Of a DNA stretch of 64,000 bases, positions 127 through 62,595 are shown piece after piece. Positions within the stretch are counted from its first letter, which is position 1; each line of letters starts with the position of its first letter. The position numbers and the translations under genes are program-made. The notes under the pieces were generated by a model, which ran no database searches, had not been told where the DNA came from, and saw nothing but the letters and a program-made list of their open reading frames with translations. This stretch comes from Escherichia coli (GTDB taxonomy: Bacteria; Pseudomonadota; Gammaproteobacteria; Enterobacterales; Enterobacteriaceae), in assembly GCF_003790525.1 (NCBI RefSeq), contig NZ_CP033636.1. One strand, written 5' to 3'.

Positions 127-1942
127 GTTTTCCGGGCATCCGTAAGGGCCGAAACTTCCCGTCTTCCAGTCTGCGGCTCTGCCGCCAGACGTAATCGCCG
201 GTTAGGTTGATGTGCTCCCAGCCCAGCGGCGACAGGAATTGCAGCAGCTCGCCGTCCACCGGCTTGCCGGCCTCGACCAACCCCTGGGTGGCGCGTTCCA
301 GGTACACCGTGTTCCACAGCACGATAGCCGCCGTCACCAGGTTGAGGCCGCTGGCCCGGTAGCGCTGCTGCTCGAAGCTCCGATCCCTGATTTCCCCAAG
401 GCGGTTGAAGAACACCGCCCTGGCCAGCGAGTTGCGCGCCTCACCTTTGTTCAGGCCGGCATGCACGCGGCGGCGCAGTTCAACACTTTGCAGCCAGTCC
501 AGGATGAACAGCGTGCGCTCGATCCGGCCCAGCTCGCGCAGGGCCACGGCCAGTCCGTTCTGGCGCGGGTAGCTGCCGAGCTTGCGCAGCATCAGCGAGG
601 CGGTGACGGTGCCCTGCTTGATCGAGCTGGCCAGGCGCAGGATGTCGTCCCAGTGGGCACGCACGTGCTTGATGTTCAGGGTGCCGCCGATCAGCGGGCG
701 CAACGTCGGGTAGGCTTGCACGCCCTGCGGCACGTACAGCTTGGTTTCGCCGAGGTCGCGGATGCGCGGCGCGAAGCGGAAGCCTAGCAGGTGCATCAGG
801 GCAAAGACGTGATCGGTGAAGCCGGCCGTGTCGGTGTAGTGCTCCTCGATCCGCAGGTCGGACTCGTGGTACAGCAGGCCGTCGAGCACATAGGTGGAAT
901 CGCGGACGCCGACATTCACCACGCGGGTGCTGAACGGCGCGTACTGGTCGGAGATATGGGTATAGAACAGCCGTCCCGGCTCGCTACCGTACTTCGGGTT
1001 GACGTGCCCGGTGCTCTCGCCCCGGCCACCCGCGCGGAAGCGCTGGCCATCGGAGGATGAGGTCGTGCCGTCGCCCCAGTGGGCGGCAAAGGCGTGGCGA
1101 TACTGGTGGTTGACCAGCTCGGCCAAGGCCGCCGAATAGGTTTCGTCGCGGATGTGCCAGGCTTGCAGCCAGGACAGCTTGGCGTAGGTCAGGCCGGGGC
1201 TCGACTCGGCCATCTTGGTCAGCCCGAGGTTGATCGCATCACCGAGGATTGCGGACAGCAGCAACGTCCTGTCTTTGGCCTCGGCCCCGTCCTTCAAGTG
1301 GGTGAAGTGGCGGCTGAAGCCCGTCCAGTCGTCCACGTCCATCAGCAGTTCGGTGATCTTGATGCGCGGCAGTAACTGGCTGGTTTGGTCGATCAGCGCC
1401 TGCGCCCGATCCGGCACCGCCGCATCCAGCGGGGTGATTTTCAGCCCTGACTCGGTGAGGATGGCATCGGGCAGCTCGTTGTCCTTGGCCAGGCGGGTGA
1501 CGGTGGCCAACTGCTCGTCCAGCAGCTGCAAACGCTCTTCCAGGTACTGGTCGCTGTTCGGGTTGATCGCCAGGGGCAGGGCCTGCTCGCGCTTGAGTGC
1601 GGCGAACTTCTCGGCCGGCAGCAGGTAGTCGTCGAAGTCGCGGAACTGCCGCGAGCCCTTGACCCAGATGTCGCCGGAGCGCAGGGCGTTCTTCAGCTCG
1701 GACAGGGCGCAGATTTCGTAGAATTTCCGGTCGAGGCCTTCCGGGGTGATCACCAGCGGCTTCCAGCGCGGCTTGATGAAGGCCGTGGGTGCATCGGCCG
1801 GCACCTTGCGCAGGTTGTCGGCGTTCATCTCACGCAGGGTCTGCACGGCTGCCAGCACGCCTTGCGCGGCCGGCCCGTGCTGTTCCCCAACTTTTCGCTC
1901 GGCGAAGAGTATGAACATGCGCCGCCGGCGACGAATCGCCAA
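122..1942 (-). pseudogene. tnpA: Tn3-family transposase TnpA, 5'-truncated (C-terminal ~600 aa only), Tn1721-type remnant
   Basis: 606-aa ORF aligns by eye with the C-terminal two-thirds of the full-length Tn21-type TnpA at 26136-29087; no N-terminal region present; ends inside the IR. Confidence 0.85.
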
Positions 1943-2269
1943 ATCTCACCGTATCTCCCGAGCGGACGATTTCGCACCGGTCTGCCCGTCGAAGGGCTTG
2001 CGATCGAACGGGGCGACCTTTTCTATGCATGTCCGCGAGCCAGCGTCTTTTATGGCACGGCGCTCGACGCCGACCTTCGGACGCGCGGCGTAAGCACGCT
2101 TGTCATGGCCGGGATAAGCACCACCGGCGTTGTTCTTTCAAGCGTCGCCTGGGCTAGTGATGCGGACTACGACGTGCGTTTGGTCCAGGACTGCTGCTAC
2201 GACCCGGATCGGGATGCCCACGAAGCTCTGTTGCGTTCCGGGTTCGGCGGACGTGTACAGGTCGTGTAA
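1862..2269 (+). pseudogene. possible isochorismatase-family hydrolase remnant
   Basis: ORF translation has a cysteine-hydrolase-like C-terminal pattern; overlaps the tnpA fragment; weak. Confidence 0.3.
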
Positions 2270-2406
2270 TTTTCGGGCCTCGCATGATCGCGGCCATAGC
2301 CGCAGGTGGATTGGTGCGAGGCAGGGCCAGTCCAAGTCAGGGTGCGGTCATCGCGGCGCCTGCAACTCTCAAAAACCCATCGCCGTAGCGGAGGTCTTGT
2401 AATCGC

Positions 2407-3291
2407 ATGTCATTACGCACGCCCGATTTATTGTTCACAGCGATAGCACCTGCCATTTGGGGCAGCACCTACATTGTCACCACCCAATACCTGCCGAACT
2501 TCTCACCGATGACGGTCGCGATGCTGCGGGCGTTGCCGGCGGGTTTATTGCTCGTGATGATCGTCCGACAGATTCCAACGGGAATCTGGTGGATGCGCAT
2601 CTTCATCCTCGGCGCACTTAATATTTCGCTATTCTGGAGCTTGTTGTTTATTTCGGTCTACCGCCTGCCGGGCGGGGTCGCGGCGACGGTAGGCGCTGTG
2701 CAGCCGCTGATGGTCGTGTTCATCTCTGCCGCTCTGCTAGGTAGCCCGATACGATTGATGGCGGTCCTGGGGGCTATTTGCGGAACTGCGGGCGTGGCGC
2801 TGTTGGTGTTGACACCAAACGCAGCGCTAGATCCTGTCGGCGTCGCAGCGGGCCTGGCGGGGGCGGTTTCCATGGCGTTCGGAACCGTGCTGACCCGCAA
2901 GTGGCAACCTCCCGTGCCTCTGCTCACCTTTACCGCCTGGCAACTGGCGGCCGGAGGACTTCTGCTCGTTCCAGTAGCTTTAGTGTTTGATCCGCCAATC
3001 CCGATGCCTACAGGAACCAATGTTCTCGGCCTGGCGTGGCTCGGCCTGATCGGAGCGGGTTTAACCTACTTCCTTTGGTTCCGGGGGATCTCGCGACTCG
3101 AACCTACAGTTGTTTCCTTACTGGGCTTTCTCAGCCCGGGGACCGCCGTGTTGCTAGGATGGTTGTTCTTGGATCAGACGCTGAGTGCGCTTCAAATCAT
3201 CGGCGTCCTGCTCGTGATCGGGAGTATCTGGCTGGGCCAACGTTCCAACCGCACTCCTAGGGCGCGTATAGCTTGCCGGAAGTCGCCTTGA
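2407..3291 (+). CDS. pecM: EamA/DMT-family transporter (PecM-like), typical of the Tn1721 tet(A) module
   Basis: 294-aa polytopic membrane protein with EamA-like repeats, in the expected position next to tetA(A). Confidence 0.8.
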   Translation: MSLRTPDLLFTAIAPAIWGSTYIVTTQYLPNFSPMTVAMLRALPAGLLLVMIVRQIPTGIWWMRIFILGALNISLFWSLLFISVYRLPGGVAATVGAVQPLMVVFISAALLGSPIRLMAVLGAICGTAGVALLVLTPNAALDPVGVAAGLAGAVSMAFGTVLTRKWQPPVPLLTFTAWQLAAGGLLLVPVALVFDPPIPMPTGTNVLGLAWLGLIGAGLTYFLWFRGISRLEPTVVSLLGFLSPGTAVLLGWLFLDQTLSALQIIGVLLVIGSIWLGQRSNRTPRARIACRKSP

Positions 3292-3322
3292 CCCGCATGG
3301 CATAGGCCTATCGTTTCCACGA

Positions 3323-4522
3323 TCAGCGATCGGCTCGTTGCCCTGCGCCGCTCCAAAGCCCGCGACGCAGCGCCGGCAGGCAGAGCAAGTAGAGGGCAGC
3401 GCCTGCAATCCATGCCCACCCGTTCCACGTTGTTATAGAAGCCGCATAGATCGCCGTGAAGAGGAGGGGTCCGACGATCGAGGTCAGGCTGGTGAGCGCC
3501 GCCAGTGAGCCTTGCAGCTGCCCCTGACGTTCCTCATCCACCTGCCTGGACAACATTGCTTGCAGCGCCGGCATTCCGATGCCACCCGAAGCAAGCAGGA
3601 CCATGATCGGGAACGCCATCCATCCCCGTGTCGCGAAGGCAAGCAGGATGTAGCCTGTGCCGTCGGCAATCATTCCGAGCATGAGTGCCCGCCTTTCGCC
3701 GAGCCGGGCGGCTACAGGGCCGGTGATCATTGCCTGGGCGAGTGAATGCAGAATGCCAAATGCGGCAAGCGAAATGCCGATCGTGGTCGCGTCCCAGTGA
3801 AAGCGATCCTCGCCGAAAATGACCCAAAGCGCGGCCGGCACCTGTCCGACAAGTTGCATGATGAAGAAGACCGCCATCAGGGCGGCGGCGACGGTCATGC
3901 CCCGGGCCCACCGGAACGAAGCGAGCGGGTTGAGAGCCTCCCGGCGTAACGGCCGGCGTTCGCCTTTGTGCGACTCCGGCAAAAGGAAACAGCCCGTCAG
4001 GAAATTGAGGCCGTTCAAGGCTGCCGCGGCGAAGAACGGAGCGTGGGGGGAGAAACCGCCCATCAGCCCACCGAGCACAGGTCCCGCGACCATCCCGAAC
4101 CCGAAACAGGCGCTCATGAAGCCGAAGTGCCGCGCGCGCTCATCGCCATCAGTGATATCGGCAATATAAGCGCCGGCTACCGCCCCAGTCGCCCCGGTGA
4201 TGCCGGCCACGATCCGCCCGATATAGAGAACCCAAAGGAAAGGCGTCGTCGCCATGATGGCGTAGTCGACAGCAGCGCCGGCCAGCGAGACGAGCAAGAC
4301 CGGCCGCCGCCCGAAACGATCCGACAGCGCGCCCAGCACAGGTGCGCAGGCAAATTGCATCAACGCATACAGCGCCAGCAGAATGCCATAGTGGGCGGTG
4401 ACGTCGTTCGAGTGAACCAGATCGCGCAGGAGGCCCGGCAGCACCGGCATAATCAGGCCGATGCCGACAGCGTCGAGCGCGACAGTGCTCAGAATTACGA
4501 TCAGGGGTCTGTTGGGTTTCAC
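3323..4522 (-). CDS. tetA: tetracycline efflux MFS transporter TetA(A)
   Basis: Translation matches TetA(A) from recall (KPNRPLIVILSTVALDAVGIGLIMPVLPGLLRDL...); start placed at the GTG giving 399 aa; the ORF track extends 25 codons further upstream. Confidence 0.9.
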   Translation of the reverse strand: MKPNRPLIVILSTVALDAVGIGLIMPVLPGLLRDLVHSNDVTAHYGILLALYALMQFACAPVLGALSDRFGRRPVLLVSLAGAAVDYAIMATTPFLWVLYIGRIVAGITGATGAVAGAYIADITDGDERARHFGFMSACFGFGMVAGPVLGGLMGGFSPHAPFFAAAALNGLNFLTGCFLLPESHKGERRPLRREALNPLASFRWARGMTVAAALMAVFFIMQLVGQVPAALWVIFGEDRFHWDATTIGISLAAFGILHSLAQAMITGPVAARLGERRALMLGMIADGTGYILLAFATRGWMAFPIMVLLASGGIGMPALQAMLSRQVDEERQGQLQGSLAALTSLTSIVGPLLFTAIYAASITTWNGWAWIAGAALYLLCLPALRRGLWSGAGQRADR

Positions 4523-4627
4523 GTCTGGCCTCCGGACCAGCCTCCGCTGGTCCGATTGAACGCGCGGATTCTTTATCACTGATAAGTTGGTGGACATATT
4601 ATGTTTATCAGTGATAAAGTGTCAAGC
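4523..4627. promoter_or_regulatory. divergent tetA/tetR promoter-operator region
   Basis: 105-bp intergenic region between divergent tetA(A) and tetR(A); operators expected from the known TetR system, not mapped base by base. Confidence 0.6.
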
Positions 4628-5278
4628 ATGACAAAGTTGCAGCCGAATACAGTGATCCGTGCCGCCCTGGACCTGTTGAACGAGGTCGGCGTAGACGGTC
4701 TGACGACACGCAAACTGGCGGAACGGTTGGGGGTTCAGCAGCCGGCGCTTTACTGGCACTTCAGGAACAAGCGGGCGCTGCTCGACGCACTGGCCGAAGC
4801 CATGCTGGCGGAGAATCATACGCATTCGGTGCCGAGAGCCGACGACGACTGGCGCTCATTTCTGATCGGGAATGCCCGCAGCTTCAGGCAGGCGCTGCTC
4901 GCCTACCGCGATGGCGCGCGCATCCATGCCGGCACGCGACCGGGCGCACCGCAGATGGAAACGGCCGACGCGCAGCTTCGCTTCCTCTGCGAGGCGGGTT
5001 TTTCGGCCGGGGACGCCGTCAATGCGCTGATGACAATCAGCTACTTCACTGTTGGGGCCGTGCTTGAGGAGCAGGCCGGCGACAGCGATGCCGGCGAGCG
5101 CGGCGGCACCGTTGAACAGGCTCCGCTCTCGCCGCTGTTGCGGGCCGCGATAGACGCCTTCGACGAAGCCGATCCGGACGCAGCGTTCGAGCAGGGACTC
5201 GCGGTGATTGTCGATGGATTGGCGAAAAGGAGGCTCGTTGTCAGGAACGTTGAAGGACCGAGAAAGGGTGACGATTGA
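4628..5278 (+). CDS. tetR: tetracycline repressor TetR(A)
   Basis: 216-aa translation from the ATG at 4628 (MTKLQPNTVIRAALDLLNEVG...) matches TetR(A) from recall. Confidence 0.9.
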   Translation: MTKLQPNTVIRAALDLLNEVGVDGLTTRKLAERLGVQQPALYWHFRNKRALLDALAEAMLAENHTHSVPRADDDWRSFLIGNARSFRQALLAYRDGARIHAGTRPGAPQMETADAQLRFLCEAGFSAGDAVNALMTISYFTVGAVLEEQAGDSDAGERGGTVEQAPLSPLLRAAIDAFDEADPDAAFEQGLAVIVDGLAKRRLVVRNVEGPRKGDD

Positions 5279-5362
5279 TCAGGACCGCTGCCGGAGCGCA
5301 ACCCACTCACTACAGCAGAGCCATGTAGACAACATCCCCTCCCCCTTTCCACCGCGTCAGAC

Positions 5363-5391
5363 GCCCGTAGCAGCCCGCTACGGGCTTTTTC
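5363..5391 (+). terminator. putative intrinsic terminator downstream of tetR
   Basis: Hairpin GCCCGTAGC-AGCCC-GCTACGGGC followed by TTTTT, read directly. Confidence 0.45.
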
Positions 5392-5669
5392 ATGCCCTGC
5401 CCTAGCGTCCAAGCCTCACGGCCGCGCTCGGCCTCTCTGGCGGCCTTCTGGCGCTCCTGCTGCGGCGTCCGCTCGTGGGCCGTGGCGCGGGTCCGCGCGC
5501 CGGCCTCGTGCGCCTGGCGCTCGCGGGCGAGGTCCAGGGCGGCCGTCTTCACGTTCTGCCTTGCGCAGATGAGATAGGAGAGCATGAAAAACCTCGGGGC
5601 AGCCATCGAATGATGCCATCTACAGGGGTTAAAATAACCACCATCATTTCATAACAATACCTGCTGACT

Positions 5670-6260
5670 ATGAAGATCTACGTCATCAAAATAGCAGTTC
5701 ATGGAGTCAGTCCGATGGTCTGGCGTCGGCTGAGAATTGCTGCCGACACGTCACTGGCCGCGCTTCACTTCATTTTCCAGATAGTGCAGGGCTGGGGGGA
5801 CGACCATCTCCATCAATTTCACATTTATGGCAAAGATTACGGTATCTCCTACGAAGGAGGCATCGGTTTTGTCGATAATCCGTTCCGGGTCGTGATTGAT
5901 GATTTTGCTTTTGATGCTGGCGATCGCTTTACCTATGAATACAATTTCTTTGAGCACTGGCTTCATGACATTCGTGTTGAGGCCATTTATGAAAACTCTA
6001 CGCTGAAAGCGCCGTTTTGTATAAGCGGCCATGGTATGCCCGGAGCCACAGCTGCGGATGAGTTCGATAAAACCCTGGCGTTTCTTGAAGCTATCGTTAA
6101 TGCGGATGATGAAACAACGGTCGGCGAGATCCGCCCTTTTGCTGACGACCTGGATGCTGTCAGGTTCAACCGCCACAAAATCAACCGGCAACTGAGCAGG
6201 CTCGACCTTGCATCTCCGGTACTGGAGCCTGAAGTTATCTGGCTGGGCCGTCGTCGCTGA
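5670..6260 (+). CDS. pRiA4b ORF-3-like family protein, often an IS passenger gene
   Basis: 196-aa translation resembles the plasmid pRiA4b ORF-3-like family; recall-based. Confidence 0.45.
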   Translation: MKIYVIKIAVHGVSPMVWRRLRIAADTSLAALHFIFQIVQGWGDDHLHQFHIYGKDYGISYEGGIGFVDNPFRVVIDDFAFDAGDRFTYEYNFFEHWLHDIRVEAIYENSTLKAPFCISGHGMPGATAADEFDKTLAFLEAIVNADDETTVGEIRPFADDLDAVRFNRHKINRQLSRLDLASPVLEPEVIWLGRRR

Positions 6261-38115: not shown

Positions 38116-38182
38116 TTTTAGCTCCTGCAAACAGTTGAATGAGGGCTGCATTAACAGCCCCGGGTGAAAAGTTACTTTTCGA

Positions 38183-42411: not shown

Positions 42412-43470
42412 ATGAACAAGAAAATTTGGTTTATGGAAGGTTTGTCCTCCCAGCGAGATATTATTCAGGGGGTAAAATCATTTGCACAAAAAAATAATTT
42501 TGCTATTACCGTATTTGCCTCCCACCGTAACGAAAGACATGAAATTCTTTCCGTTGCCGATTATTCTTTGACTGAACCTGAAGATCCTCAAAAACGTCTT
42601 CAGTTTATTCAGGAAACCATTCAGACCTACGGCATCCACCATATTCATACTGGCCGTAACAGCCAGTGGTTTGAAGAACACCGTTCAGCCATTGAATCGA
42701 CCGGAGCCACCCTTACTACCGGTGCAACAGGCGTCGACTGGTTAACTCTGGCTGACGAAAAAGTTACTTTTGCTCAGTTTATGGAGCAAAACGGGCTCCC
42801 GGTCGTACCGTCCTGGCGGGTGAATACGCTGGCAGAATTAAAGACGCACCTCGCGGCCCCGCCGTTCTCGGACAGCCCGGTATGCGTGAAGCCGGTGACG
42901 GGTATCTATGGCATGGGATTCTGGCGCTTTGATGACAGTGCTTCGCCCATGGCCGTCTTTAATCATCCCGAACATCGTCTGGTCAGTCCGCAACAGTATA
43001 TTGCAGCAGCATCGGCTTCTGAGTCGTTTAAACCCCTTGTTTTGATGCCGTACCTGCCAGGCCCGGAATTTTCCGTCGATATCCTCGCGGATAAGGGCGA
43101 AATACTCGCAGCCGTGGGACGCCGTAAGGAAGGGGCTATCCAGTATCTGGTAAACGAAGGAAGCGCCTGGGAACTGGCTTGTGACTGCGCCCGGGTTATG
43201 AAGGCCGACGGGCTGGTGAATGTTCAGACGCGAAACGATGTGAATGGCAACCCGGTGCTGCTTGAAACCAACATGCGTCCGTCAGGCGGGGTGGGTTATA
43301 CCCTTCACAGCGGGGTGAACCTTCCCGGGTTGTTTGCTGCCTTTAAGCTCGGTCTGATGTCTGAAGATGCGGTGATCCAGAGCGCCAGAAATACCTTTTC
43401 TCCGGTTGCAGTGAGATCCATCACAGATGTCATCGTTTACCCGGAATCACTCTCTAACCATCTGAATTAA
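42412..43470 (+). CDS. ATP-grasp family enzyme (ter-linked)
   Basis: 352-aa ORF; ATP-grasp assignment from sequence pattern and from the published ter gene-neighbourhood analysis as recalled; not verified by search. Confidence 0.55.
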   Translation: MNKKIWFMEGLSSQRDIIQGVKSFAQKNNFAITVFASHRNERHEILSVADYSLTEPEDPQKRLQFIQETIQTYGIHHIHTGRNSQWFEEHRSAIESTGATLTTGATGVDWLTLADEKVTFAQFMEQNGLPVVPSWRVNTLAELKTHLAAPPFSDSPVCVKPVTGIYGMGFWRFDDSASPMAVFNHPEHRLVSPQQYIAAASASESFKPLVLMPYLPGPEFSVDILADKGEILAAVGRRKEGAIQYLVNEGSAWELACDCARVMKADGLVNVQTRNDVNGNPVLLETNMRPSGGVGYTLHSGVNLPGLFAAFKLGLMSEDAVIQSARNTFSPVAVRSITDVIVYPESLSNHLN

Positions 43471-52658: not shown

Positions 52659-54295
52659 TGTCGCAAAATGTTTTACTTGAAGAGAAGATTATCCGCTTAG
52701 TGCTGTCTGAGCTGGGCCACCCTGTAGAAGGTGAGCGGCTTTTTCTTCTATCGCACGACCCTTCCCTTACTGAAGAGATTATGCGGCTTAAAGAGCGGAT
52801 TGAGAGCCTTGCACAGGGTTTATCTGCGCGGGTTAGCGAAGGTTATAACGACGCAGAGATCGCCCCCTCGTCAGCATCCAGCCTTTCCGATCAGCAACAA
52901 ACGGTCGTAAGTGATGCTGATAACCCGGGCATTGACGCTACCGATACACCATTACTGCAACCCCTGCCAGAAAATGAACCTCATCCTCCGTTCTGGAAGC
53001 TGATGCCTTATTACGAATTTGATAAACCAGCACAGAGGGAAGACGAAAACCTGTCTTCCCTGGTATTAAAACCCGGGCAGATACCGACAGGCCAGCAGCG
53101 GGCCGGATTAGCTGTGCCACCTGCCGTTCCCCCGAGAGCTAAAATAGTTATTCCCAACGCCCGCGCAGGCGAACGTTTCTCTTCGCCGGTTGCTATAGTT
53201 CTGGATGAGGGCCAGCAGGCTACTGTCAGGGACGTTGTCTTTCCCAGGAACATTGGCCTGACCTTTGACAAAGAGCATAAGTTGCTGACAGGTACACCCA
53301 CCGAAAGCGGCGATATAGAGCTTTCAGTACTCTGGTCATGCGCTTCGCACGACGAATGCGAAACAAAACAGCTTTTTATAGTCAATCCCGATCCGAGAAG
53401 CCTGTGGAAGGTGGTAGAGCCACCAGCAGACGCTTCCTACCCTAAGTCCCATCTGGACGCTGCTGGCCTGGTCAGGGGTGACATACGTATTGCTGCCGCC
53501 AGTCGCCGGGGACGATCTCATGAGCATGCCGGGAGCTTCAGAGATGACGACTTCTATATCAACCACTGCCAGGAAACAGGATGGTCTGTCATGCTGGTCG
53601 CAGACGGGGCCGGTAGTGCGGTAAATTCCCGGGAAGGCTCCCGGATTGCAGTCCAAACGGCTGGCGATTACCTTTTCAATCAGCTCAGTGGTTTGAAAGG
53701 CGTCCATCTAAAGCAGCACATCACGGCGTGGGAAGGGAGCGATCAGCAGGCAACCATAAACGCCATGCTTCATCATTTTAAACAGGCAGCTACGCTCGCG
53801 GTCAACAGTATCCAGAACGAAGCCATTTGTGCAGAACAACCTGTGAAATCCTATTCAACAACCCTACTGGCAACTGTAGCGCTACGAACTGATAACGAGC
53901 TGTTTGCGGCTGCATTCTGGCTTGGTGATGGTGCGATAGGTGCATACAGCCCTTCCGGTAAAGTCAGGATACTGGGAAATCCCGATAGCGGAGAATACGC
54001 AGGACAAACCCGCTTTCTTGACCAGAGCATTATCGCAGACCCCTCGTTTAGCGGCCGCATCAGCGTGGGTAAATGGAATGATGTATCTCACTTGATCCTC
54101 ATGACAGATGGCGTATCAGACCCTCTGTTTGAGACAGATAACGGGCTTCGCAGTGACGAAAAATGGACCCGTCTCCTTGATGAGCTCATCCCTGTCCTTA
54201 CAGACGCCAGTATTGCGCCTGAGAGGTTAGGCGACTGGCTTAACTTTTTCTCCACAGGGAACCACGATGACCGCACTATTGCGGTGTTGTGGTAA
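52658..54295 (+). CDS. PP2C-family Ser/Thr protein phosphatase
   Basis: Motifs MLVADGAGS and MTDGVSD in a 545-aa ORF; ATG overlaps the previous stop. Confidence 0.65.
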   Translation: MSQNVLLEEKIIRLVLSELGHPVEGERLFLLSHDPSLTEEIMRLKERIESLAQGLSARVSEGYNDAEIAPSSASSLSDQQQTVVSDADNPGIDATDTPLLQPLPENEPHPPFWKLMPYYEFDKPAQREDENLSSLVLKPGQIPTGQQRAGLAVPPAVPPRAKIVIPNARAGERFSSPVAIVLDEGQQATVRDVVFPRNIGLTFDKEHKLLTGTPTESGDIELSVLWSCASHDECETKQLFIVNPDPRSLWKVVEPPADASYPKSHLDAAGLVRGDIRIAAASRRGRSHEHAGSFRDDDFYINHCQETGWSVMLVADGAGSAVNSREGSRIAVQTAGDYLFNQLSGLKGVHLKQHITAWEGSDQQATINAMLHHFKQAATLAVNSIQNEAICAEQPVKSYSTTLLATVALRTDNELFAAAFWLGDGAIGAYSPSGKVRILGNPDSGEYAGQTRFLDQSIIADPSFSGRISVGKWNDVSHLILMTDGVSDPLFETDNGLRSDEKWTRLLDELIPVLTDASIAPERLGDWLNFFSTGNHDDRTIAVLW

Positions 54296-54320
54296 GGGAT
54301 ACGCTTCTTCGGTGATCAAT

Positions 54321-55820
54321 ATGGCAAATATTGTTACGTGCAAAACAAAGGACGGCGAAACAGTCCAGTATGTTGACGAGGTAATTGGTTCGGGCTCGAT
54401 GAAGGATGTTTACTTCTCGCCTGATAAATCATACGTCGTCGCTTTTTATCATAAACCGCAGAACGAGCAGGCCCGGGATCGGATTGATATGATCACCGGA
54501 CGCTACAGGCAAAACATTTTTGGCCAGTCCGGAGGTGAATACTGGAAGGACCTGTTTTGCTGGCCGACCCACGTTGTTGAGCATGGGGATAAAATCGGCA
54601 TCGTGGTTCCAACCTACAAAAGCTACTTTTTCTTTAAATACGGCTCTAAAAACGATGATTTTCTTGGCATAAAAGGCCGTGAAAAGGAAGGCAAATGGTT
54701 TGCCAGCGCCAGCAACCAGAATAAATTTCTCGACCCACGTGAACGAGGCAATACGCTTACCTATCTCAAGGTCTGTCTGCTGCTAACAAGAGCCGTCAGA
54801 AGGATGCATGCGGCAGGTCTCTGTCACAGCGATCTAAGCTATAAAAACGTGCTTATCGATCCAGAAATGGGACATGCCTGCATCATTGACGTAGACGGCC
54901 TGGTTGTCCCTGGAAAGTATCCTCCCGACGTCGTGGGCACCCCGGATTTTATCGCTCCGGAAGTGGTGAAAACCAGCCATCTTTCCAAAGAGGATCCGAA
55001 CCGCGTATTGCCAAGCATTTCTACTGACCGTCATGCGCTGTCGGTGCTTATCTACATGTATCTGTTCTTCCGTCATCCGCTACGTGGCGGAAAAATACAT
55101 GACATGTCGGATGAAGTACGTGATGAGACCTTATCTATGGGTGAGAAGGCACTCTTCATTGAACATCCGACAGACAAAAGCAATGCAGTCAAAGTCAGTC
55201 AGCTATCCTCCTTTTCACTGCCCTGGGCTGACCCGGAGAAAATTCCTTACACCATCATGGGCCCTTATTTGACGCCTTTGTTTGAACGCGCCTTTATTGA
55301 TGGCTTACACGATGCCAATAAACGCCCGACCGCCGATGAGTGGGAAAGTGCCCTGGTTAAAACAGTCGATCTGATACAGCCCTGCCAGAACAAGGCGTGT
55401 GAACAGAAATGGTACGTTTTCTCAGGTAAGACAAAGCCGGTTTGTCCCTACTGCGGTACGCCATACAAGGGTAAATTACCGGTTCTAAATTTATATTCAT
55501 CCCGAAAGGAAGGCAGTTATCGTCCTGACGACCACCGGTTGATGGTGTGGAGCGGGCAGTCAATCTATGCGTGGCATGTGAATCGCCTCATTGCGCCAAA
55601 TGAGCGCACAACCGATGCACAAAGGAAACGAGTTGGGTATTTTGTTTTCCATAACGATCAGTGGTGGTTAGTAAATGAAGGCATAAATGGGCTTATGTCA
55701 TTACCGGATAAACGACAGATTGCCATTGGGGAAAAAATTGAACTGACGAATAACGCTCAGTTTGTTCTGTCAAAGGAGGAAGGCGGCAGGCTGGTCGTCG
55801 TTCAGTTAGTTGAAAACTAA
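54321..55820 (+). CDS. Ser/Thr protein kinase with C-terminal zinc-ribbon
   Basis: Catalytic-loop-like HSDLSYKNVLID and IIDVDG; Cys cluster CQNKACEQKWYVFSGKTKPVCPYCG; start at the ATG of MANIVTCK. Confidence 0.65.
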   Translation: MANIVTCKTKDGETVQYVDEVIGSGSMKDVYFSPDKSYVVAFYHKPQNEQARDRIDMITGRYRQNIFGQSGGEYWKDLFCWPTHVVEHGDKIGIVVPTYKSYFFFKYGSKNDDFLGIKGREKEGKWFASASNQNKFLDPRERGNTLTYLKVCLLLTRAVRRMHAAGLCHSDLSYKNVLIDPEMGHACIIDVDGLVVPGKYPPDVVGTPDFIAPEVVKTSHLSKEDPNRVLPSISTDRHALSVLIYMYLFFRHPLRGGKIHDMSDEVRDETLSMGEKALFIEHPTDKSNAVKVSQLSSFSLPWADPEKIPYTIMGPYLTPLFERAFIDGLHDANKRPTADEWESALVKTVDLIQPCQNKACEQKWYVFSGKTKPVCPYCGTPYKGKLPVLNLYSSRKEGSYRPDDHRLMVWSGQSIYAWHVNRLIAPNERTTDAQRKRVGYFVFHNDQWWLVNEGINGLMSLPDKRQIAIGEKIELTNNAQFVLSKEEGGRLVVVQLVEN

Positions 55821-55986: not shown

Positions 55987-57099
55987 TTATAAAAGTGAAT
56001 AATTTTGTGACTCTACCCTGCCGCTCTTCTTTCCAGTGTCATGGTTTTTAACATCTGAAATACTGACATTGTTAAGCCGGTGATTGTAAAAGGCGATGCG
56101 GACAATCTCATGAAGATATTCAAGTTCGTTTTGTGTCAAGGACTGGCCTTCCTGGGTTTTTGAAATCATTTCCTGCCAGCAGATCAGTCTTTCGTAACTG
56201 ACATGTTCGCTGTTTTCCAGGCAGTGCAACCTGAAATAGCGAAGGAACAAAGGAAATTCATCGGTCTGAGCGATGTCATAAGCCCGAACCGTTAACCGAC
56301 ACAGACATACAATCGTATCCTGCTGTAACCTGACTAGCGCGTTATGACTGCCCGGAAGGATATCAGGCAATTTCATCTTACAGTCAGCAAGGCGCTGAAG
56401 AAGAGGCCCTTCCTCTGAAGGCTCCCGTCCCCGATACTCCTGAAGAGGTTCAGATTCAAGTTCATGCATTAATGGATGATATAGCCATTCCCGGGAACTG
56501 GTCTCATCAATGATCAGGCTTTCAATGCACTCACTGTATGTTGTTTTACGTCGCCCGAGCTGCACCTGACTGATTTCATATTCAATATCAGGAAGATCGA
56601 TACGCAATGCGGCAACTCTTTCGGAAGGATGAAGATGGTCAAAGGTTAACTTCTCTGAAATGCTGCGATCCCTGTCCAGAAAGACGGCCACACATAAATC
56701 ATTAACCTTTACGAACAGATCAGCTGTGCCTCCGAACATACTGCCGCTTCCACTAACCTCATTCAGTGAAACCGGCCCACCATCGTCGCCAGCGAGAAGA
56801 TTTGGGAAACCAAGAACCTGGTGCTCGTTGATGACTTCAATAATCTTTCCCCGGATGGCTTCCATCAGACCATCACAGTCACCGGCTACAGCTGTACTGT
56901 GTGAGAAATGCCAAAGCTTGACCTCCCCCTGCTTTGCTAACAGATCAGTTTTGCAAGCGGGGCAGATGCAGTTACAGTCAATACCCCGGCTGACCTCTGT
57001 AATATCTAAAAAGAGTCCTGATTCTCGCTGGAGTCCAAATGGAATACCAAATGTATAACTCTTACGCATGGCTGCACCCCGTTTTTGATAATGATTCAA
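55987..57099 (-). CDS. CoiA-like zinc-finger protein (competence-protein CoiA family, predicted nuclease-related); start uncertain
   Basis: Motif DCNCICPACKTDLLAKQGEVKLWHFSH resembles the CoiA N-terminal zinc-finger/HFxH signature; recall-based. Confidence 0.4.
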   Translation of the reverse strand: MNHYQKRGAAMRKSYTFGIPFGLQRESGLFLDITEVSRGIDCNCICPACKTDLLAKQGEVKLWHFSHSTAVAGDCDGLMEAIRGKIIEVINEHQVLGFPNLLAGDDGGPVSLNEVSGSGSMFGGTADLFVKVNDLCVAVFLDRDRSISEKLTFDHLHPSERVAALRIDLPDIEYEISQVQLGRRKTTYSECIESLIIDETSSREWLYHPLMHELESEPLQEYRGREPSEEGPLLQRLADCKMKLPDILPGSHNALVRLQQDTIVCLCRLTVRAYDIAQTDEFPLFLRYFRLHCLENSEHVSYERLICWQEMISKTQEGQSLTQNELEYLHEIVRIAFYNHRLNNVSISDVKNHDTGKKSGRVESQNYSLL

Positions 57100-57429
57100 A
57101 CTATATCCGAAATAACGGAGGAGGATTTCTGTAAAACGTATTAAAAGAAATGATTTTTCCGTCTTCCAGATTAATGTTTGACAAAAATCAAATGAGAGCC
57201 TTACAAATATTGAGAGAGAAGTTTAGGTAAAGTAACTTTTATCACTTCTAATAAAATGAAGGAGAATATCGGATGTATTTAGCAGTGGGCTTGGCTTATG
57301 ATTAAAGTTTTTCTCCGAACTTAATAAACAACTTTAAAAGACAGGCTATTACAATGCCTTTAGCCCCGAAAGGGGCATAAACTATTTTCAAATCTAGGCA
57401 CAGTCTTTTTGTTGTGCCAATATTAATAA

Positions 57430-57648
57430 TTACTCGCGAACAAAGGTCCACACACTCGCAGGAACTTTGTCATATAACTTTTTCATTGTCAGTTCGGCTT
57501 TACGATGATCATAAGCACCAGAAATTTCAAGAGAGGCGACACCCGAGTTTTTTTCACATAACCTTTCAAATACTTTTTCGAGCGTTTCGAACGAACTACA
57601 CTTACGGAATTTCATTAAATAAGACTGCTTTGTGTCAGACATAATCAA
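57430..57648 (-). CDS. hha: Hha/YmoA-family nucleoid-associated modulator
   Basis: Translation ...KQSYLMKFRKCSSFETLEKVFE...DHRKAELTMKKLYDKVPASVWTFVR aligns by eye with E. coli Hha. Confidence 0.7.
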   Translation of the reverse strand: MIMSDTKQSYLMKFRKCSSFETLEKVFERLCEKNSGVASLEISGAYDHRKAELTMKKLYDKVPASVWTFVRE

Positions 57649-57803
57649 CCTTCTTTAGACAGGCCTCAACTGGCCAGGGATAATCTTAATATCATTTTTC
57701 ACTTAAGCCTAACGATTTCACAACCTTTTTCGTTGTTTCCACCCTGTTCATAACCAGGTACATGAGTGCTAAAATGACCTGTAATTAAAACCAGTGTATC
57801 CCG

Positions 57804-58988
57804 GTGAGCAGGATGAAGAATCAATCAGTGATCAGACAGTTTTCGGAAAGCGAATTGCATCAGCAGCTGGAAACGTTCGGCAACCATGATAAACAGCTTT
57901 CACGCTTGATCCGTTACTTTTCCCATCTGAGATACAACACTGCTAAAACCTATCTGCACTGGCTACGAGTATGGAACGAATGGTATCTGGCGAATGCCCG
58001 GTTGCATACAGACTGGCCAGTAAGTTCGCTCCCCGTGTCTGAGGACGCTCTGCTTGCGTTTATGGGGCATCTTGAAGGCAAATTGTCACGAAGCAGCATA
58101 AACAGCTGTCTTCAGGCCTTAAATAGTATCCATAAAAAAGGGCTTAACCTGCCCGGGATTATTACGTCTGAAGCATGGTACATGCTGGAAGCCTTAAAAC
58201 AATCGGAAGCCCGGAAGCGAAAGACGACTAAACAGGCAACTCCCTTTCTTATTGGCGATCTCAAGGCTCTGATAAAGTTACGCAGTACTACAAACTCAGT
58301 TCGTAAACTTCGTGACCTGTGCCTGATCTGGACAGGCTTTGAAACACTGCTCCGTTCATCCGAAATTCGACGTATACGTCTGAAAGATCTGTCTCTGGAT
58401 AGTATGACCGGTGAATTTAACCTGACGGTATACCGTACAAAAACGAACATTAGTACACTTCTTACCTACCGGCTGACACGTCAGTTAACTAACTGCCTCT
58501 TGAGATTGATGAACCTCGTGAAAATGGATCAGCACAGTCATCCGGATGAATTCCTTTTCCAGGCCGTAAATTTCCATGATACAGGCTATATGCCACCCGG
58601 CTGGAAGCTTCGGAGTAAGGGGAATGAGCTATCTGAACTTCTTAAAAGGCATAACCTACCCTATCGTGCTAAGCAAAGTCTTCTGAACGATGAAGATGAA
58701 GAAGACACTGTGGACGATGCCGGTATGCTCAGCAAAAATTCCCTTTTACGAGCATTTAAAGAGATGTGGAATGAGCTTTATCCAAATGAGACTAAAACTC
58801 GTTACTGGACAGGGCACAGCGTTCGTGTAGGCGGAGCGATACAGCTAAATATTGAAGGTTACTCGCTACCACAGATTATGGAAATGGGGAACTGGTCGAA
58901 TGAAGAAATGGTTATGCGCTACATTCGTAATATTGAAGCTGGTAAAAAAGCAATGATCAAGCTTATGCGAAATGCCTTTGATGAATAG
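57804..58988 (+). CDS. tyrosine site-specific recombinase (phage-integrase family)
   Basis: C-terminal catalytic signature ...HSVRVGGAIQL...MEMGNWSNEEMVMRYI (His/Arg/Tyr region). Confidence 0.65.
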   Translation: MSRMKNQSVIRQFSESELHQQLETFGNHDKQLSRLIRYFSHLRYNTAKTYLHWLRVWNEWYLANARLHTDWPVSSLPVSEDALLAFMGHLEGKLSRSSINSCLQALNSIHKKGLNLPGIITSEAWYMLEALKQSEARKRKTTKQATPFLIGDLKALIKLRSTTNSVRKLRDLCLIWTGFETLLRSSEIRRIRLKDLSLDSMTGEFNLTVYRTKTNISTLLTYRLTRQLTNCLLRLMNLVKMDQHSHPDEFLFQAVNFHDTGYMPPGWKLRSKGNELSELLKRHNLPYRAKQSLLNDEDEEDTVDDAGMLSKNSLLRAFKEMWNELYPNETKTRYWTGHSVRVGGAIQLNIEGYSLPQIMEMGNWSNEEMVMRYIRNIEAGKKAMIKLMRNAFDE

Positions 58989-59009
58989 CGCCCTCACGGG
59001 CGCATAACT

Positions 59010-59360
59010 TTATTTTTTCTTGAACGGGTTAAGTCTGGTGAGATTAGAGAGTGCCCCTCCCGGAGGCAAAATTCCCGTTCTTTTATATTTGTACACGCCA
59101 TTTAATTTCATTGTCTGGATTCCAAGATTAATAAGCGTGACAAGTTTAAGGGTATACAGAAGTGTAAATTGTGGAGCAACCTGAATAAAAACCAATAACA
59201 AGCCTGCACACATTACACGTAGCCATGCCGCGTACTCCATGCTCAGCGGACGCTTGAAATAGAATCTTTCGAGCAAATCAACTGTCTTATTACTGATCCA
59301 CGCCGCCGCCACGGAGAGTAACAACACGATGCACACCATAATGCCCAGTTCCATTTTCAC
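59010..59360 (-). CDS. hypothetical membrane protein
   Basis: 116-aa ORF with two hydrophobic segments. Confidence 0.3.
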   Translation of the reverse strand: MKMELGIMVCIVLLLSVAAAWISNKTVDLLERFYFKRPLSMEYAAWLRVMCAGLLLVFIQVAPQFTLLYTLKLVTLINLGIQTMKLNGVYKYKRTGILPPGGALSNLTRLNPFKKK

Positions 59361-60195
59361 TCCCTTCTCTTTTAGTCTCTTTAAGTTGAGGCTTAGCCAC
59401 AGTAGTTTTGTTTTTTGCTTTTTTCTTAGGTTTGGTATGATGAAACAGAAAACAATCCACCATTACCCAACCATTTTTATATCGAGCCACCAGCATCTTC
59501 TGGCTGGGGTAATGAGCATGAAACAGCATTTTCACGTCCATGGTGCCCATCAACGACTGTTTGCGCTTTAGCTCATCCTCAGCCATCTGAAATTCTTGTA
59601 AGAATTCTGAAGACAGACGCTGACGCAGGATTCTTATGGCACTGGAGTTTTCATCATTCTTTGCCAGATGCCCGAAGCGTACTAGTGCCTTGTGGGTTAT
59701 CTGGATGGGTCCCAGATGAGAGCTGAGCTGTTCGTACTGCCAGAAGTAGGTCAAATCCACCTTAACCCAGCTGATGCTGTCCAGCAGAGCCTCGTTCATG
59801 ATGGTTCCGGACATTGGTACCATTGTCAGCCTGGCCAGACGCATATGTATGTAGTCCGTAAGCAACCTCAGCGACTCAGGAACGTTTTTATTGAGCAGGA
59901 GATGCTGAAGCACCGGGGTTGCGGTCTGCCAACACAGATTGCGCCCGTCAGGCAGGAAAGCAAACTTTTGATCGTCAGGCGCAGAGTTCGAAGCGTTTTC
60001 CTTACGAAGCAAAAAATAATGGCCGCACAGCAGCTCTGCTCTTACCTGGTCCTCGTCAGGGTCATGTCGGGCTTTACTTAGATCAACGGTAAGCACAACG
60101 CGGTTAATCGCATCAGCGTGATATTTTTTTACCCAGACGCAGACACGATAGAGACGCTCATCGATTTTCTGGCTGGCTGTGGAAATCCATTGCAT
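59290..60195 (-). CDS. hypothetical protein
   Basis: 301-aa ORF; no recognised family; 3' end overlaps the next ORF. Confidence 0.35.
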   Translation of the reverse strand: MQWISTASQKIDERLYRVCVWVKKYHADAINRVVLTVDLSKARHDPDEDQVRAELLCGHYFLLRKENASNSAPDDQKFAFLPDGRNLCWQTATPVLQHLLLNKNVPESLRLLTDYIHMRLARLTMVPMSGTIMNEALLDSISWVKVDLTYFWQYEQLSSHLGPIQITHKALVRFGHLAKNDENSSAIRILRQRLSSEFLQEFQMAEDELKRKQSLMGTMDVKMLFHAHYPSQKMLVARYKNGWVMVDCFLFHHTKPKKKAKNKTTVAKPQLKETKREGSENGTGHYGVHRVVTLRGGGVDQ

Positions 60196-60204
60196 TGTTG
60201 TTCC

Positions 60205-61185
60205 TTAATTTTCGGGGCTGACAATGAAAATGCCCAGCTCAGCCCCCGGCACGAGTTCTGTATATTTCAGGCTCAGCTTCCGTTGGTTGGACGGGCCCTG
60301 GCTGTTTTCAGGAGCCCAGTCAGAGAGCGTTTTTAATTGAGGTATGTTGCCTGCTGCGAAAATGGGCAAGGATGCTTTTACTACTGAATAATCAGTCTCA
60401 GCATATTTATTCCCGTTTCGTTCCTGCCCTTCAGGCCTAAATGCAAAAATGTGAGCAATCGGAACAGGGAAAGAGTTAGTTCGACAAAGGCGATAAGATT
60501 CGCCCTGCTTCAGTGGGTGAAATTCAAGACGGTGTAAAGCCTTATCGATATTAGACACGACATTCAAATTGGTAGTTGCTACATTTTTTACTTCTGAGGC
60601 TCTCCTGCGCTCCAACAAACTCACAAGTTGCTCTGCTGTTTTAACTTCCTGGTTTCGGTTTAGCCGCCATGAAAAAGTAACTTTTTTAAGCTGGGACTTG
60701 ATGAAAAGGACATTTCTTGTTGAGTGCATAGCGACAAGGCCCGGGAGCTTCTTGTGCACTTTATCAAAACGGACATTCTTTTTATTATCGATACGCCTCA
60801 TTGCCGCAGCAAAATCATTTTTTGCTTCATTTATAGATGTGATCAAGCTTTCGAGAAGATCTGCTCTTTCTGGGACAATGATAAGACCCGGGTATTTAGT
60901 GGTCACTTTGGTGGAATCATGACTTAATGACTCTATGTCATCCACACAGATGTCAGTAAGTGCCTGAATAATTTCCTCAACCGAAGCATCGTCTTTAACA
61001 CTAACCCTGATGGGTTTAACCTGCTTCAGTCGCTCTTCTGTTCGAGATACGGTGGAGACAGTCATCAGGTTTGCCATCAGCGGGGGGGTGTTCGAAAGAA
61101 AACACTTAAGCGAGTCGATACGTTCCAGAATCTGGTCACGAAAATAGGGCAAATCGTCATAACTCATACGTTTCTCCAGGCTCAT
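60205..61185 (-). CDS. possible Tus-like replication terminus-binding protein
   Basis: By-eye similarity to E. coli Tus over KVHKKLPGLVAMHSTRNVLF...FSWRLNRNQEV...LVSLLER; low-identity, unverified. Confidence 0.35.
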   Translation of the reverse strand: MSLEKRMSYDDLPYFRDQILERIDSLKCFLSNTPPLMANLMTVSTVSRTEERLKQVKPIRVSVKDDASVEEIIQALTDICVDDIESLSHDSTKVTTKYPGLIIVPERADLLESLITSINEAKNDFAAAMRRIDNKKNVRFDKVHKKLPGLVAMHSTRNVLFIKSQLKKVTFSWRLNRNQEVKTAEQLVSLLERRRASEVKNVATTNLNVVSNIDKALHRLEFHPLKQGESYRLCRTNSFPVPIAHIFAFRPEGQERNGNKYAETDYSVVKASLPIFAAGNIPQLKTLSDWAPENSQGPSNQRKLSLKYTELVPGAELGIFIVSPEN

Positions 61186-61257
61186 GTTATTTCAAATCAA
61201 TTTTGCTGCCCTGGCTGACCTTGCAGAACATAAATGTCATGTAAACCTCTAAAGAAG

Positions 61258-61704
61258 TCATTTTGAAACAGCTTTCACAGCATGCGATTTATGTTCGATA
61301 GGGCTCATGAACAAAGGATGATAATGGAGACGCCATGGATAGTGGATAGTCTTACCCACCTGGGTGATCCGATTGAGGCGAAAACGACCATTTATACAGT
61401 CAACTGACCAAAGCCCGGGAGAAACTAACCTCTTCCAGCGGTAAAAAGAGAAACCTGCAACACAGAGGTCATGCTCCAGGAAATGTTGAGTTTCGACGAC
61501 GCGAACTTTTATCAAAAACCCCAGCATTGGCGAAAACCAGATCAACAACCATGTTGGCGGCAGGATGACTTTGTTCAGGAGATGATCTGTCATAAGCAAG
61601 GCAGATAACATCAGAAAACTGATAGTCAACCACAGGGCCATCCAACCGGCCCATACGCGGCTCTGACAGGGTTTCCATTCGAGAAGAAAAAGTTTTTTAT
61701 GCAT
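61258..61704 (-). CDS. hypothetical membrane protein
   Basis: 148-aa ORF with hydrophobic N-terminal half. Confidence 0.3.
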   Translation of the reverse strand: MHKKLFLLEWKPCQSRVWAGWMALWLTISFLMLSALLMTDHLLNKVILPPTWLLIWFSPMLGFLIKVRVVETQHFLEHDLCVAGFSFYRWKRLVSPGLWSVDCINGRFRLNRITQVGKTIHYPWRLHYHPLFMSPIEHKSHAVKAVSK

Positions 61705-61720
61705 TCTGCCCCGCCTAATT

Positions 61721-62257
61721 TTAATGTATTGCCGAAGTATGCTGCATCATGATGGTGGTGCGGGGAAAGATTTCAAACTTCCACAATTCTGAAGCCGTGT
61801 TCCAACCATGAAAGATCCCGTCTCCACAGCGAGTGTTAAAAGCAAGAATTTCATCCCTGACCTGGTAAGCGAGCACTTCTGGCATATCAATAAATTCAGG
61901 TAAGGAAAGAAGAATCCCATGGATAACTTCTCCGGTTAACTTACTCATAACCTCTTCCTCAGACAGGGCAGCGTCCGGGAACAAACACGACGGAAGTGAA
62001 AAACAACATAGGTCAAGACCAAGAGCAGCCCTTCCTGCGTCGTAGCCTTCTTCATTAACGACAAAACGAAAGAATTTTTCAGCCTCACCCAGTAATGTTG
62101 ACGGTCCTTCAGACGGAACTTCAATACCACTGAAGACTTTATCGGTCCAGTTGGTAAATGGACTGGTGAAAACCCAACAAATTAAGGATAACGCCAGCTC
62201 TTCCTTAAACATACGTTCAGTGCCGGTTGTTCTGGAAAGTTGCTTTTGAGTACTCAT
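61721..62257 (-). CDS. hypothetical protein
   Basis: 178-aa ORF; no recognised family. Confidence 0.3.
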   Translation of the reverse strand: MSTQKQLSRTTGTERMFKEELALSLICWVFTSPFTNWTDKVFSGIEVPSEGPSTLLGEAEKFFRFVVNEEGYDAGRAALGLDLCCFSLPSCLFPDAALSEEEVMSKLTGEVIHGILLSLPEFIDMPEVLAYQVRDEILAFNTRCGDGIFHGWNTASELWKFEIFPRTTIMMQHTSAIH

Positions 62258-62330
62258 GTTTTACCTGTTGCATGAAATTATTGATGTTATATAAACACAA
62301 CCGGCATTTTATCTAATAGGTTTGAAAACA

Positions 62331-62588
62331 CTAAAAATCGCAAATGCTGGTACCTTTCTGTTTTAAGAGATTTTCAAGGTAAAGTGAGCCGAGATCAATT
62401 GGCTGGTTCTCTTCAAGACAGGCTCGCACAAGATCTTCAATAGAGACCGAATCAACCCCCCTTCCCTGTAAAATTTCTTTAGCAGATGCCAGCGTTTTAT
62501 GAACGCTTCGACTTAGTTGTAATCTGACTTGTGTGCGGGTATCAAAAAGACAATCTTCTGTGACACTTTGTGAAACGGTTCTACTCAT
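62331..62588 (-). CDS. hypothetical small protein
   Basis: 85-aa ORF; no recognised family. Confidence 0.25.
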   Translation of the reverse strand: MSRTVSQSVTEDCLFDTRTQVRLQLSRSVHKTLASAKEILQGRGVDSVSIEDLVRACLEENQPIDLGSLYLENLLKQKGTSICDF

Positions 62589-62595
62589 TGAAAAA

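Follow-up and report, generated by a model that had tools for sequence, protein, structure and literature searches.

A CoiA-like zinc-finger protein of the IncH plasmid backbone with a degenerate putative nuclease core

In natural transformation, D-loops are resolved by CoiA, a structure-specific endonuclease (bioRxiv 10.1101/2024.02.06.579203) that has been reported as restricted to Bacillota. Transformation is not restored by the Streptococcus pneumoniae protein carrying either of two substitutions, D95A or E105A (bioRxiv 10.1101/2024.02.06.579203). Here, we analyze a CoiA-like gene in a 64,000-nucleotide stretch of DNA from Escherichia coli (contig NZ_CP033636.1 of assembly GCF_003790525.1; hereafter, the window), which matches IncHI2 plasmids such as pSTM6-275. 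We find that the encoded protein combines a CoiA-type zinc finger with a central domain in which one of the four core acids of CoiA survives (D117; the others are M69, S108, and F130), and with a C-terminal helical domain found in a single clade of relatives on mobile elements. We consider it slightly better than an even bet that this is a non-catalytic, CoiA-derived zinc-finger accessory protein of the IncH backbone, with a binding or adaptor role.

The gene lies on the minus strand. Its open reading frame (ORF), read from a TTG start, occupies 55987-57099 and encodes 370 amino acids. This was the length given in a first-pass annotation made from the sequence alone; the ORF is real, and the actual protein has 360 residues. 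The true start is almost certainly the ATG at 57069, because the homologues all begin at MRKS, the coordinates of the Prokaryotic Genome Annotation Pipeline (PGAP) agree (WP_001232449.1, 360 amino acids), and upstream conservation starts exactly there. The corrected coding sequence is thus 55987-57069 (minus strand), 360 codons plus stop, with first residues MRKSYTFG. In an alignment of the upstream region across four lineages, DNA conservation sets in exactly at this ATG, preceded by GGGG, and the TTG at 57099 directly adjoins a conserved -10-like box.
57077-57080: GGGG, Shine-Dalgarno sequence
57100-57107, minus strand: -10-like box GATATAGT, about 30 nucleotides upstream of the ATG, from the upstream alignment

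A total of 1,212 plasmid records contain the DNA of the gene, and tblastn finds the protein in 2,809. Between the IncHI2 and IncHI1 copies, the proportion of nonsynonymous differences (pN) is 0.16 and that of synonymous differences (pS) is 0.85, which is saturated; per domain, pN is 0.11-0.20 and pS about 0.85 in each. All domains are constrained, and the gene is under strong purifying selection; it is far from being a chance ORF. UniProt labels the protein “CoiA-like N-terminal domain-containing.” In four IncHI2 plasmid records (H22, H23, H40, and H45), gene copies are truncated or interrupted by IS1. PGAP names truncated N-terminal fragments “competence protein CoiA family protein” and the intact gene “hypothetical protein.”

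From the N terminus, the protein is laid out as follows.
56875-57069, minus strand: zinc finger of the CoiA_N type, residues 1-65 (PF25164, hhalign, and AlphaFold2)
56464-56874, minus strand: central α/β domain, residues 66-202 (AlphaFold2 element order and a bridge to CoiA through the E-subgroup of relatives)
56350-56463, minus strand: linker, residues 203-240, of lower model confidence
56026-56349, minus strand: C-terminal helical bundle, residues 241-348

The sole direct library match is to Pfam CoiA_N (PF25164), at residues 33-59 of 360 (E = 1.6e-7). The CxC...CxxC...HFxH signature first noticed in the protein is present, reading C-N-C-I-C-P-A-C and, 13 residues on, W-H-F-S-H (C32-x-C34-x-C36-P-x-C39, W53-H54-F-S-H57, then C65). 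The candidate zinc ligands are C32, C34, C36, C39, H54, H57, and C65, among which C36, C39, H57, and C65 are unchanged across 121 family members; the finger also holds an IPFG motif. An AlphaFold2 model built from the alignment of these 121 sequences has a mean predicted local distance difference test score (pLDDT) of 90.5 and a predicted template modeling score (pTM) of 0.74; an earlier model from nine close homologues was poor outside the central domain. The modeled finger is small and β-rich, with pLDDT 91-98 over most of its length and 79 for the first ten residues. The central domain (pLDDT 91-98) runs α, β, β-meander, β, β, α, β, α, α, β, and terminates in a family-wide motif, R193-x-W195-x-Y-H198-P199. 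The linker has pLDDT 58-79, falling below 50 at residues 217-219, and bears a conserved Y-x-GR-x-P-x-E-x-GPL-x-QR motif. The helical bundle is restricted to a mobile-element clade comprising the IncH lineages and two further proteins, P0013 and P0014. NCBIfam and PHROGs scans of the protein gave nothing meaningful, and PDB sequence searches returned spurious matches alone, whether run from the single sequence or from the 121-sequence profile.

Whole-family hhalign against 12 genuine Bacillus CoiA proteins, all of which carry PF25164, PF06054, and PF25166, aligned the finger only (92%, E = 5.9e-7). The excised central domain gave a weak, positionally sensible alignment to CoiA (P = 0.0045, probability 7.7%; reversed control, P = 0.39). 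The connection is made by nine relatives, the E-subgroup (e.g., P0034 and P0089), which keep the ordered CoiA-like motifs C…E(T/S)xxH…AKQ, LE, PD, and IEV. Their N-terminal 215 residues align with CoiA residues 1-170 over 138 columns (hhalign, 96.9%, E = 1.7e-10), from the finger through α1, β1, β2, and β3. By virtue of this alignment, the central domain of the family can be regarded as homologous to the CoiA nuclease core and, judged by sequence, it descends from the CoiA PD-(D/E)XK core via the bridging E-subgroup. The CoiA likeness initially proposed for the protein thus holds for the finger directly and for the core through the bridge. The corresponding Pfam assignment does not: PF06054 matched neither the window protein nor any of 61 relatives, even at E ≤ 0.1, and fold searches with the central domain returned no significant nuclease match. 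The C-terminal bundle is unrelated to CoiA_C (PF25166), which had no Pfam match in the protein; the two C-terminal regions gave P = 0.28 in hhalign.

We compared the four acid columns, in B. subtilis-type CoiA numbering, among nine E-subgroup sequences, 101 sequences of the family majority, and 11 sequences of the plasmid clade.
α1 Glu: CoiA E64; E-subgroup E in 8/9; majority F in 34, Y in 31, and W in 8 of 101; plasmid clade M in 10/11; window protein M69
β1 Glu: CoiA E89; E-subgroup E in 7/9; majority E in 59 and D in 17 of 101; plasmid clade S in 6/11; window protein S108
β2 Asp: CoiA D100 (D95 in S. pneumoniae); E-subgroup D in 9/9; majority D in 99/101; plasmid clade D in 9/11 and P in 2/11; window protein D117
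β3 Glu: CoiA E113 (E105 in S. pneumoniae); E-subgroup E in 9/9; majority Y in 58 and F in 17 of 101; plasmid clade F in 10/11 and Y in 1/11; window protein F130

The conserved catalytic residues expected of a CoiA-type nuclease are therefore mostly absent, three of the four acids being replaced. The PD-(D/E)XK motif of the window protein reads D117 … F130-L-D132, with the canonical β3 acid missing. Because E105A abolishes CoiA function and F130 occupies that column, the window protein is without a CoiA-essential residue. The surviving acid is itself not universal, as P0010 and P0013 have Pro at the D117 position. In the deep plasmid clade, which takes in a Klebsiella orthologue of 34% identity, the positions that never vary are those of the zinc ligands and of W195-x-Y-H198-P199; no candidate catalytic acid is invariant there, and D132 is Asn in the Klebsiella protein. 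The charge of the protein differs as well. The plasmid clade has an isoelectric point (pI) of 5.25 and a net charge of -14 (-11 in the central domain), compared with pI 9.46 and +18 for CoiA and pI 8.4 for the family majority.

Full-length orthologues occur in five lineages (IncHI2, IncHI1, Klebsiella IncFIB/HI1B, and the metagenomic L002 and L004), all with synteny to hha, a recombinase gene, and a tus-like gene, which places the gene in the IncH backbone. Published experimental data exist for a single orthologue, that on the IncHI1 plasmid R27, located at 154,290-155,363 and equated with ORF R0176 (WP_001232452.1; about 73% identity over the full length). It falls inside deletion 15 (150,566-156,499) of a systematic R27 deletion series; this deletion was obtained, and deletion 16 (incC) alone reduced stability in E. 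coli MG1655 (PMC4853401). The R27 orthologue is thus dispensable for plasmid replication and stable inheritance. In a microarray study, the R0176 signal rose from 154 at 25 °C to 807 at 37 °C, a 5.24-fold difference and the largest change in that direction (PMC7366339). Furthermore, when transfer was derepressed by mutation of htdA, 139 of the 181 genes expressed were up at 25 °C and a single gene, R0176, was down (PMC7366339). Expression of R0176 therefore runs opposite to the conjugation regulon, with a rise at 37 °C and, for this gene alone, a fall on loss of htdA.

Because one of four acids is left and the charge has shifted from basic to acidic, the protein would lack CoiA-type metal-dependent endonuclease activity. 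We propose that the zinc finger and a dead-nuclease scaffold would bind a nucleic-acid or protein partner, and that the C-terminal helical domain could mediate oligomerization or partner contacts. The gene would be transcribed from its own promoter-like box and expressed in the vegetative, non-transferring state, serving an accessory function outside the transfer program. Several points weigh against this reading. PD-(D/E)XK enzymes can relocate catalytic residues, so that loss of the canonical ones is not proof of lost activity. The clade has conserved acids of its own, namely D132 (where the ExK motif has its “K”), D134, D158, D161, E163, and E165, from which a relocated active site may have been formed, and D117 itself is retained in 9 of 11 members. 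The strong conservation of W195, H198, and P199 in over 100 members of the family points to a functional site. The fold was assigned from the homology bridge and from element order, because the central-domain fold searches were not significant. In addition, the equation of the R27 orthologue with R0176 rests on coordinates and gene order rather than on a locus tag in the record, and the R27 deletion was assayed for stability only, in E. coli MG1655 (PMC4853401).

The same residues could support an active nuclease whose site has been remodeled from D117 together with D132, D134, and D158, and which processes plasmid or incoming DNA. By analogy with the CoiA D-loop resolvase, its targets might be recombination or replication intermediates near tus, the recombinase gene, and rep. 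We regard this as unlikely, albeit worth serious consideration. The domain descends from the core of a known structure-specific endonuclease (bioRxiv 10.1101/2024.02.06.579203), D132 is found in all 11 clade members two residues past F130 on β3, and D134, R135, and D158 are near-invariant; purifying selection acts on every domain, and the neighbors (tyrosine recombinase, Tus-like protein, and Rep) are of the DNA-transaction kind. These features have to be set against the M, S, and F substitutions, the acidity of the protein, the missing PF06054 and nuclease-fold matches, and the R27 deletion without a stability effect (PMC4853401). Moreover, with Pro at D117 in P0010 and P0013 and Asn at D132 in Klebsiella, no candidate catalytic residue is invariant.

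The surroundings of the gene differ between its two flanks. On one side lie hha, a tyrosine recombinase gene, two small ORFs, and a gene for a Tus-like protein; on the other, in IncHI2, lies the ter cluster, with genes for TerY, TerD, TerY, TerY-C, PP2C, and a kinase.
54267-55820, plus strand: ter-module kinase gene, named “lipopolysaccharide kinase InaA family protein” by PGAP
57804-58988, plus strand: Cre-like tyrosine recombinase
59010-59360 and 59290-60195, both minus strand: two ORFs between the recombinase and tus-like genes, overlapping by about 70 nucleotides
60205-61185, minus strand: Tus-like “DNA replication terminus site-binding protein”

The gene had been described as convergent to the kinase gene, which is correct (the gap is 166 bp), and as lying next to a ter signaling module. 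The adjacency stands for IncHI2; a functional link does not follow from it, as ter genes are absent beside the orthologues elsewhere, judged within the 7-10 kb inspected on either side. In IncHI1 p109/9 and R27 (73% identity), the neighbors are otherwise the same, with HNH-endonuclease and hypothetical genes downstream and an IS1-RepFIA-IS1 insertion separating the gene from hha. In L004 (62% identity) and L002/L003 (58%), the hha, recombinase, and tus-like block is kept and ter genes are not. The Klebsiella IncFIB/HI1B orthologue has the same block, with RepB downstream and no ter genes nearby. Since these lineages keep the block without ter genes, the ter adjacency is IncHI2-specific and incidental, and the gene is not part of the ter system. 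The Tus-like and recombinase genes are conserved with hha in all IncH lineages examined. The overlapping ORF pair is likewise annotated in pSTM6-275, R27, and p109/9, and neither ORF has a Pfam or PADLOC assignment. The window is a mosaic in guanine-cytosine (GC) content: high-GC segments (1-6000 and 26001-30000) have values of 0.60-0.64, versus 0.40-0.46 for the backbone around the gene (56001-64000). This is consistent with acquired high-GC modules within an AT-rich backbone.

Mobile elements likewise carry the two deeper full-length relatives, here with no hha. P0014 (32% identity) sits in an integrase-bearing element. P0013 (40% identity) is encoded in a Tn5053-like module of MOBF-type plasmids; a gap of 18 bp separates its gene from a preceding DUF6933 gene, whose product matches the PADLOC candidate PDC-S63 (E = 1e-42). 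The conserved string of five genes that P0013 closes (L060 3974-9038, L061, and L062, from Salmonella and E. coli plasmids) consists of a serine resolvase, a transposase-like protein, an ATPase, DUF6933, and the CoiA-like protein. The transposase-like protein is a 552–amino acid DDE-type protein with weak IS481/IS21 matches, and the ATPase is of the AAA_16/22 type; the string resembles a transposition module of the Tn5053/Tn402 type that carries two genes as cargo or as an accessory pair.

Close homologues of the window protein fall into 12 clusters at the 90% identity level, with identity reaching down to 53%. A profile of these homologues matches 4,029 proteins among 1.84 billion representatives (E ≤ 1e-3). 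Among the listed matches, three are full-length (P0008, P0013, and P0014), and hundreds of proteins of 270-320 amino acids match profile positions about 9-210 only. This family of about 4,000 clusters is mostly gammaproteobacterial in the samples examined. CoiA_N was matched in all 61 sampled relatives, and DUF7828 and DUF7830 matches overlap the same zinc finger. Foldseek searches of AFDB50 gave 521 matches (E ≤ 1e-3); the 50 listed were all uncharacterized or automatically named CoiA-like, with none from Bacillota CoiA. In about 90% of the family, judged at the alignment columns of residues 69, 73, and 130-136, the α1 and β3 Glu are jointly swapped for aromatic residues and a Y-F-T-H-P-G-R motif has been gained; this majority still retains D117, E108, K193, W195, and H198. 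The replacement could be either an ancient inactivation or a remodeled active site. The “YFTH” motif raised the idea of a Tyr nucleophile, which we rejected for the window protein, as the plasmid clade has Phe at that position. Literature searches for CoiA-like plasmid proteins, IncHI2 CoiA, WP_001232449, and DUF7828/DUF7830/PF25164 found nothing relevant.

Genes of the wider family are often located near restriction-modification enzymes, PrimPol-helicases, serine recombinases, and an LmuB-like ATPase. This raises the prospect that the window protein is a plasmid-borne defense, exclusion, or anti-defense factor, for example, one that senses or blocks foreign DNA or counters a host system, which we think distinctly unlikely. 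The relatives adjoin type III and BPTD_3080-like restriction enzymes, HsdM- and Mod-like methyltransferases, a PrimPol-helicase, an LmuB-like SMC ATPase, HipBA, and integrases, in addition to the PDC-S63-like gene next to P0013. However, no neighbor is conserved beyond 6 of 45 loci in a set of 45 species-representative wider-family genomes, and the IncH surroundings consist of a block for replication, termination, and nucleoid proteins rather than a defense island. The finger weakly resembles the N terminus of the defense protein DruB, and dispensability for plasmid maintenance (PMC4853401) would fit such a role. In PADLOC-DB 2.0, by comparison, the protein received only a CorA-like match to its C-terminal helices, judged spurious (E = 0.0023), and nine neighboring window proteins received none; a search for phage homologues of one wider-family member found none.

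Two kinds of wider-family loci are more regular in arrangement. P0021, from a metagenome (L007 325-6954), lies 25 bp after a type III restriction enzyme gene (PADLOC REase_III, E = 1e-303), in an island bounded by an integrase and HipBA in which an 893–amino acid LmuB-like SMC ATPase also precedes it. This may be a Lamassu-like arrangement with the CoiA-like protein in the effector or accessory place. Among six Vibrionaceae loci (L022, L025, L029, L032, L045, and L051), a gene for a 783–amino acid PrimPol-plus-helicase protein is divergent and about 151 bp upstream in five, and about 4.8 kb downstream in the sixth. Its PrimPol part is CRISPR-associated PrimPol-like, and its helicase part is XPB/RadD-like.

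Conserved elements are also found upstream of the gene. The -10-like box, GATATA(G/C)T, is unchanged in four lineages and is kept in R27 despite the IS1-RepFIA-IS1 insertion before hha. Promoter and terminator scans around the gene performed no better than on shuffled sequence. Because the generic promoter scan did not call the box, we infer its promoter function rather than reading it from a prediction. Farther upstream lies a palindrome.
57229-57239: palindrome AAAGTAACTTT, candidate operator, about 160 nucleotides upstream of the ATG, from the lineage alignment

This palindrome is conserved in IncHI2, IncHI1, L002, and L004, within otherwise divergent intergenic DNA. Its consensus, AAAGTWACTTT, occurs four times in the window (38168-38178, 42760-42770, 57229-57239, and 60674-60684), versus 0.02 expected, and none of 100 shuffles reached four. 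Loci of the full-length clade hold 18 copies in 159 kb, versus 0 in 610 kb of wider-family loci; copies are found in L002, L004, L005, L006, L059, and L063. The protein might thus be a sequence-specific regulator of AAAGTWACTTT sites, including an autoregulatory one upstream of its own gene, a role that overlaps with that of a non-catalytic binding protein and that we hold to be improbable. The conservation and density of the sites point this way, as does their occurrence in the non-IncH P0014 lineage. Nevertheless, P0013 loci have no copies, and the ter region holds two of the window copies (in the terD-terE spacer and within an ATP-grasp gene). Coding constraint may explain other copies, since those at homologous positions inside the tus-like gene and the one at the P0014 gene start encode K-K-V-T-F. 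Finally, the protein is acidic, and another backbone regulator could bind the sites.

A more specific and similarly doubtful proposal is that of a pseudo-nuclease recruited by IncH plasmids as a switch component of a thermoregulated lifestyle. The protein would be produced while transfer is shut down (37 °C, with HtdA active) and would restrain conjugative DNA processing or recombination in the warm-blooded host. Such restraint would act through non-cutting binding to a DNA structure or to a component of the transfer, recombination, or silencing machinery; relaxosome intermediates and an Hha/H-NS complex are examples. Functional coupling to the ter module (TerY vWA, PP2C, and Ser/Thr kinase), for example, as a kinase substrate or DNA-processing output, is highly improbable: adjacency and convergence in IncHI2 are its sole support, orthologues at 73%, 62%, 58%, and 34% identity have no ter genes within 7-10 kb, convergent genes cannot share a transcript, and the Pfam scan of the protein found no phospho-binding or vWA-related domain.

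New here are the core homology to CoiA, its degeneration, the clade-specific C-terminal domain, the genomic affiliation, and the link to the R0176 data. IncHI2, IncHI1, and Klebsiella IncFIB/HI1B plasmids rank among the main vehicles of resistance to multiple drugs, to colistin (mcr-9), and to carbapenems, and the gene is present in about 2,800 plasmid records, yet it is annotated as hypothetical. It belongs to the hha/recombinase/tus backbone block rather than to the ter module, and in R27 no plasmid gene other than its orthologue is regulated in the direction opposite to the transfer regulon. The name “competence protein CoiA” is misleading for gammaproteobacterial and plasmid proteins, most of which are without two of CoiA's four core acids; one of these two is the equivalent of the Glu required for CoiA function.

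Comparison with described systems places the window protein as follows. Similarity to DruB of Druantia type I is marginal: the finger segments of several wider-family members match it over about 40-70 residues (PADLOC, E = 7e-4 to 0.08), the window protein itself has no DruB match, and there are no Druantia genes near the window gene. A DruB-like N-terminal segment of about 50-70 residues is seen in P0034, P0146, and others, which suggests that the CoiA_N-type finger is a module shared with at least one defense protein. R27 R0176 shares the backbone position relative to hha, the Cre-like recombinase gene, and tus, and differs in having no ter cluster downstream and in the IS1-RepFIA-IS1 insertion between the gene and hha.

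The CoiA-like proteins of Gammaproteobacteria share with the window protein the zinc finger and central domain, D117, the K/R-x-W-x-Y-H-P motif, and, as a derived feature, hydrophobic or aromatic residues in place of the α1 and β3 Glu. In contrast to it, they mostly comprise 270-320 amino acids, with a C-terminal CxxC…CxxC zinc ribbon replacing the helical bundle, and they retain the β1 Glu, H133, and R136, all three of which are lost in the plasmid clade. They are also basic, and their genes are scattered and mostly chromosomal, in variable or restriction-modification islands. CoiA of Bacillota has the same finger motif, CPxC…(W/P)HFxH…C, and the same order of finger followed by α/β core, with its α1 E, β1 E, β2 D, and β3 E columns in register via the E-subgroup. 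The window protein differs from CoiA by a large insertion between α1 and β1, and its gene is carried on conjugative plasmids of Enterobacteriaceae, outside the Bacillota competence regulon.

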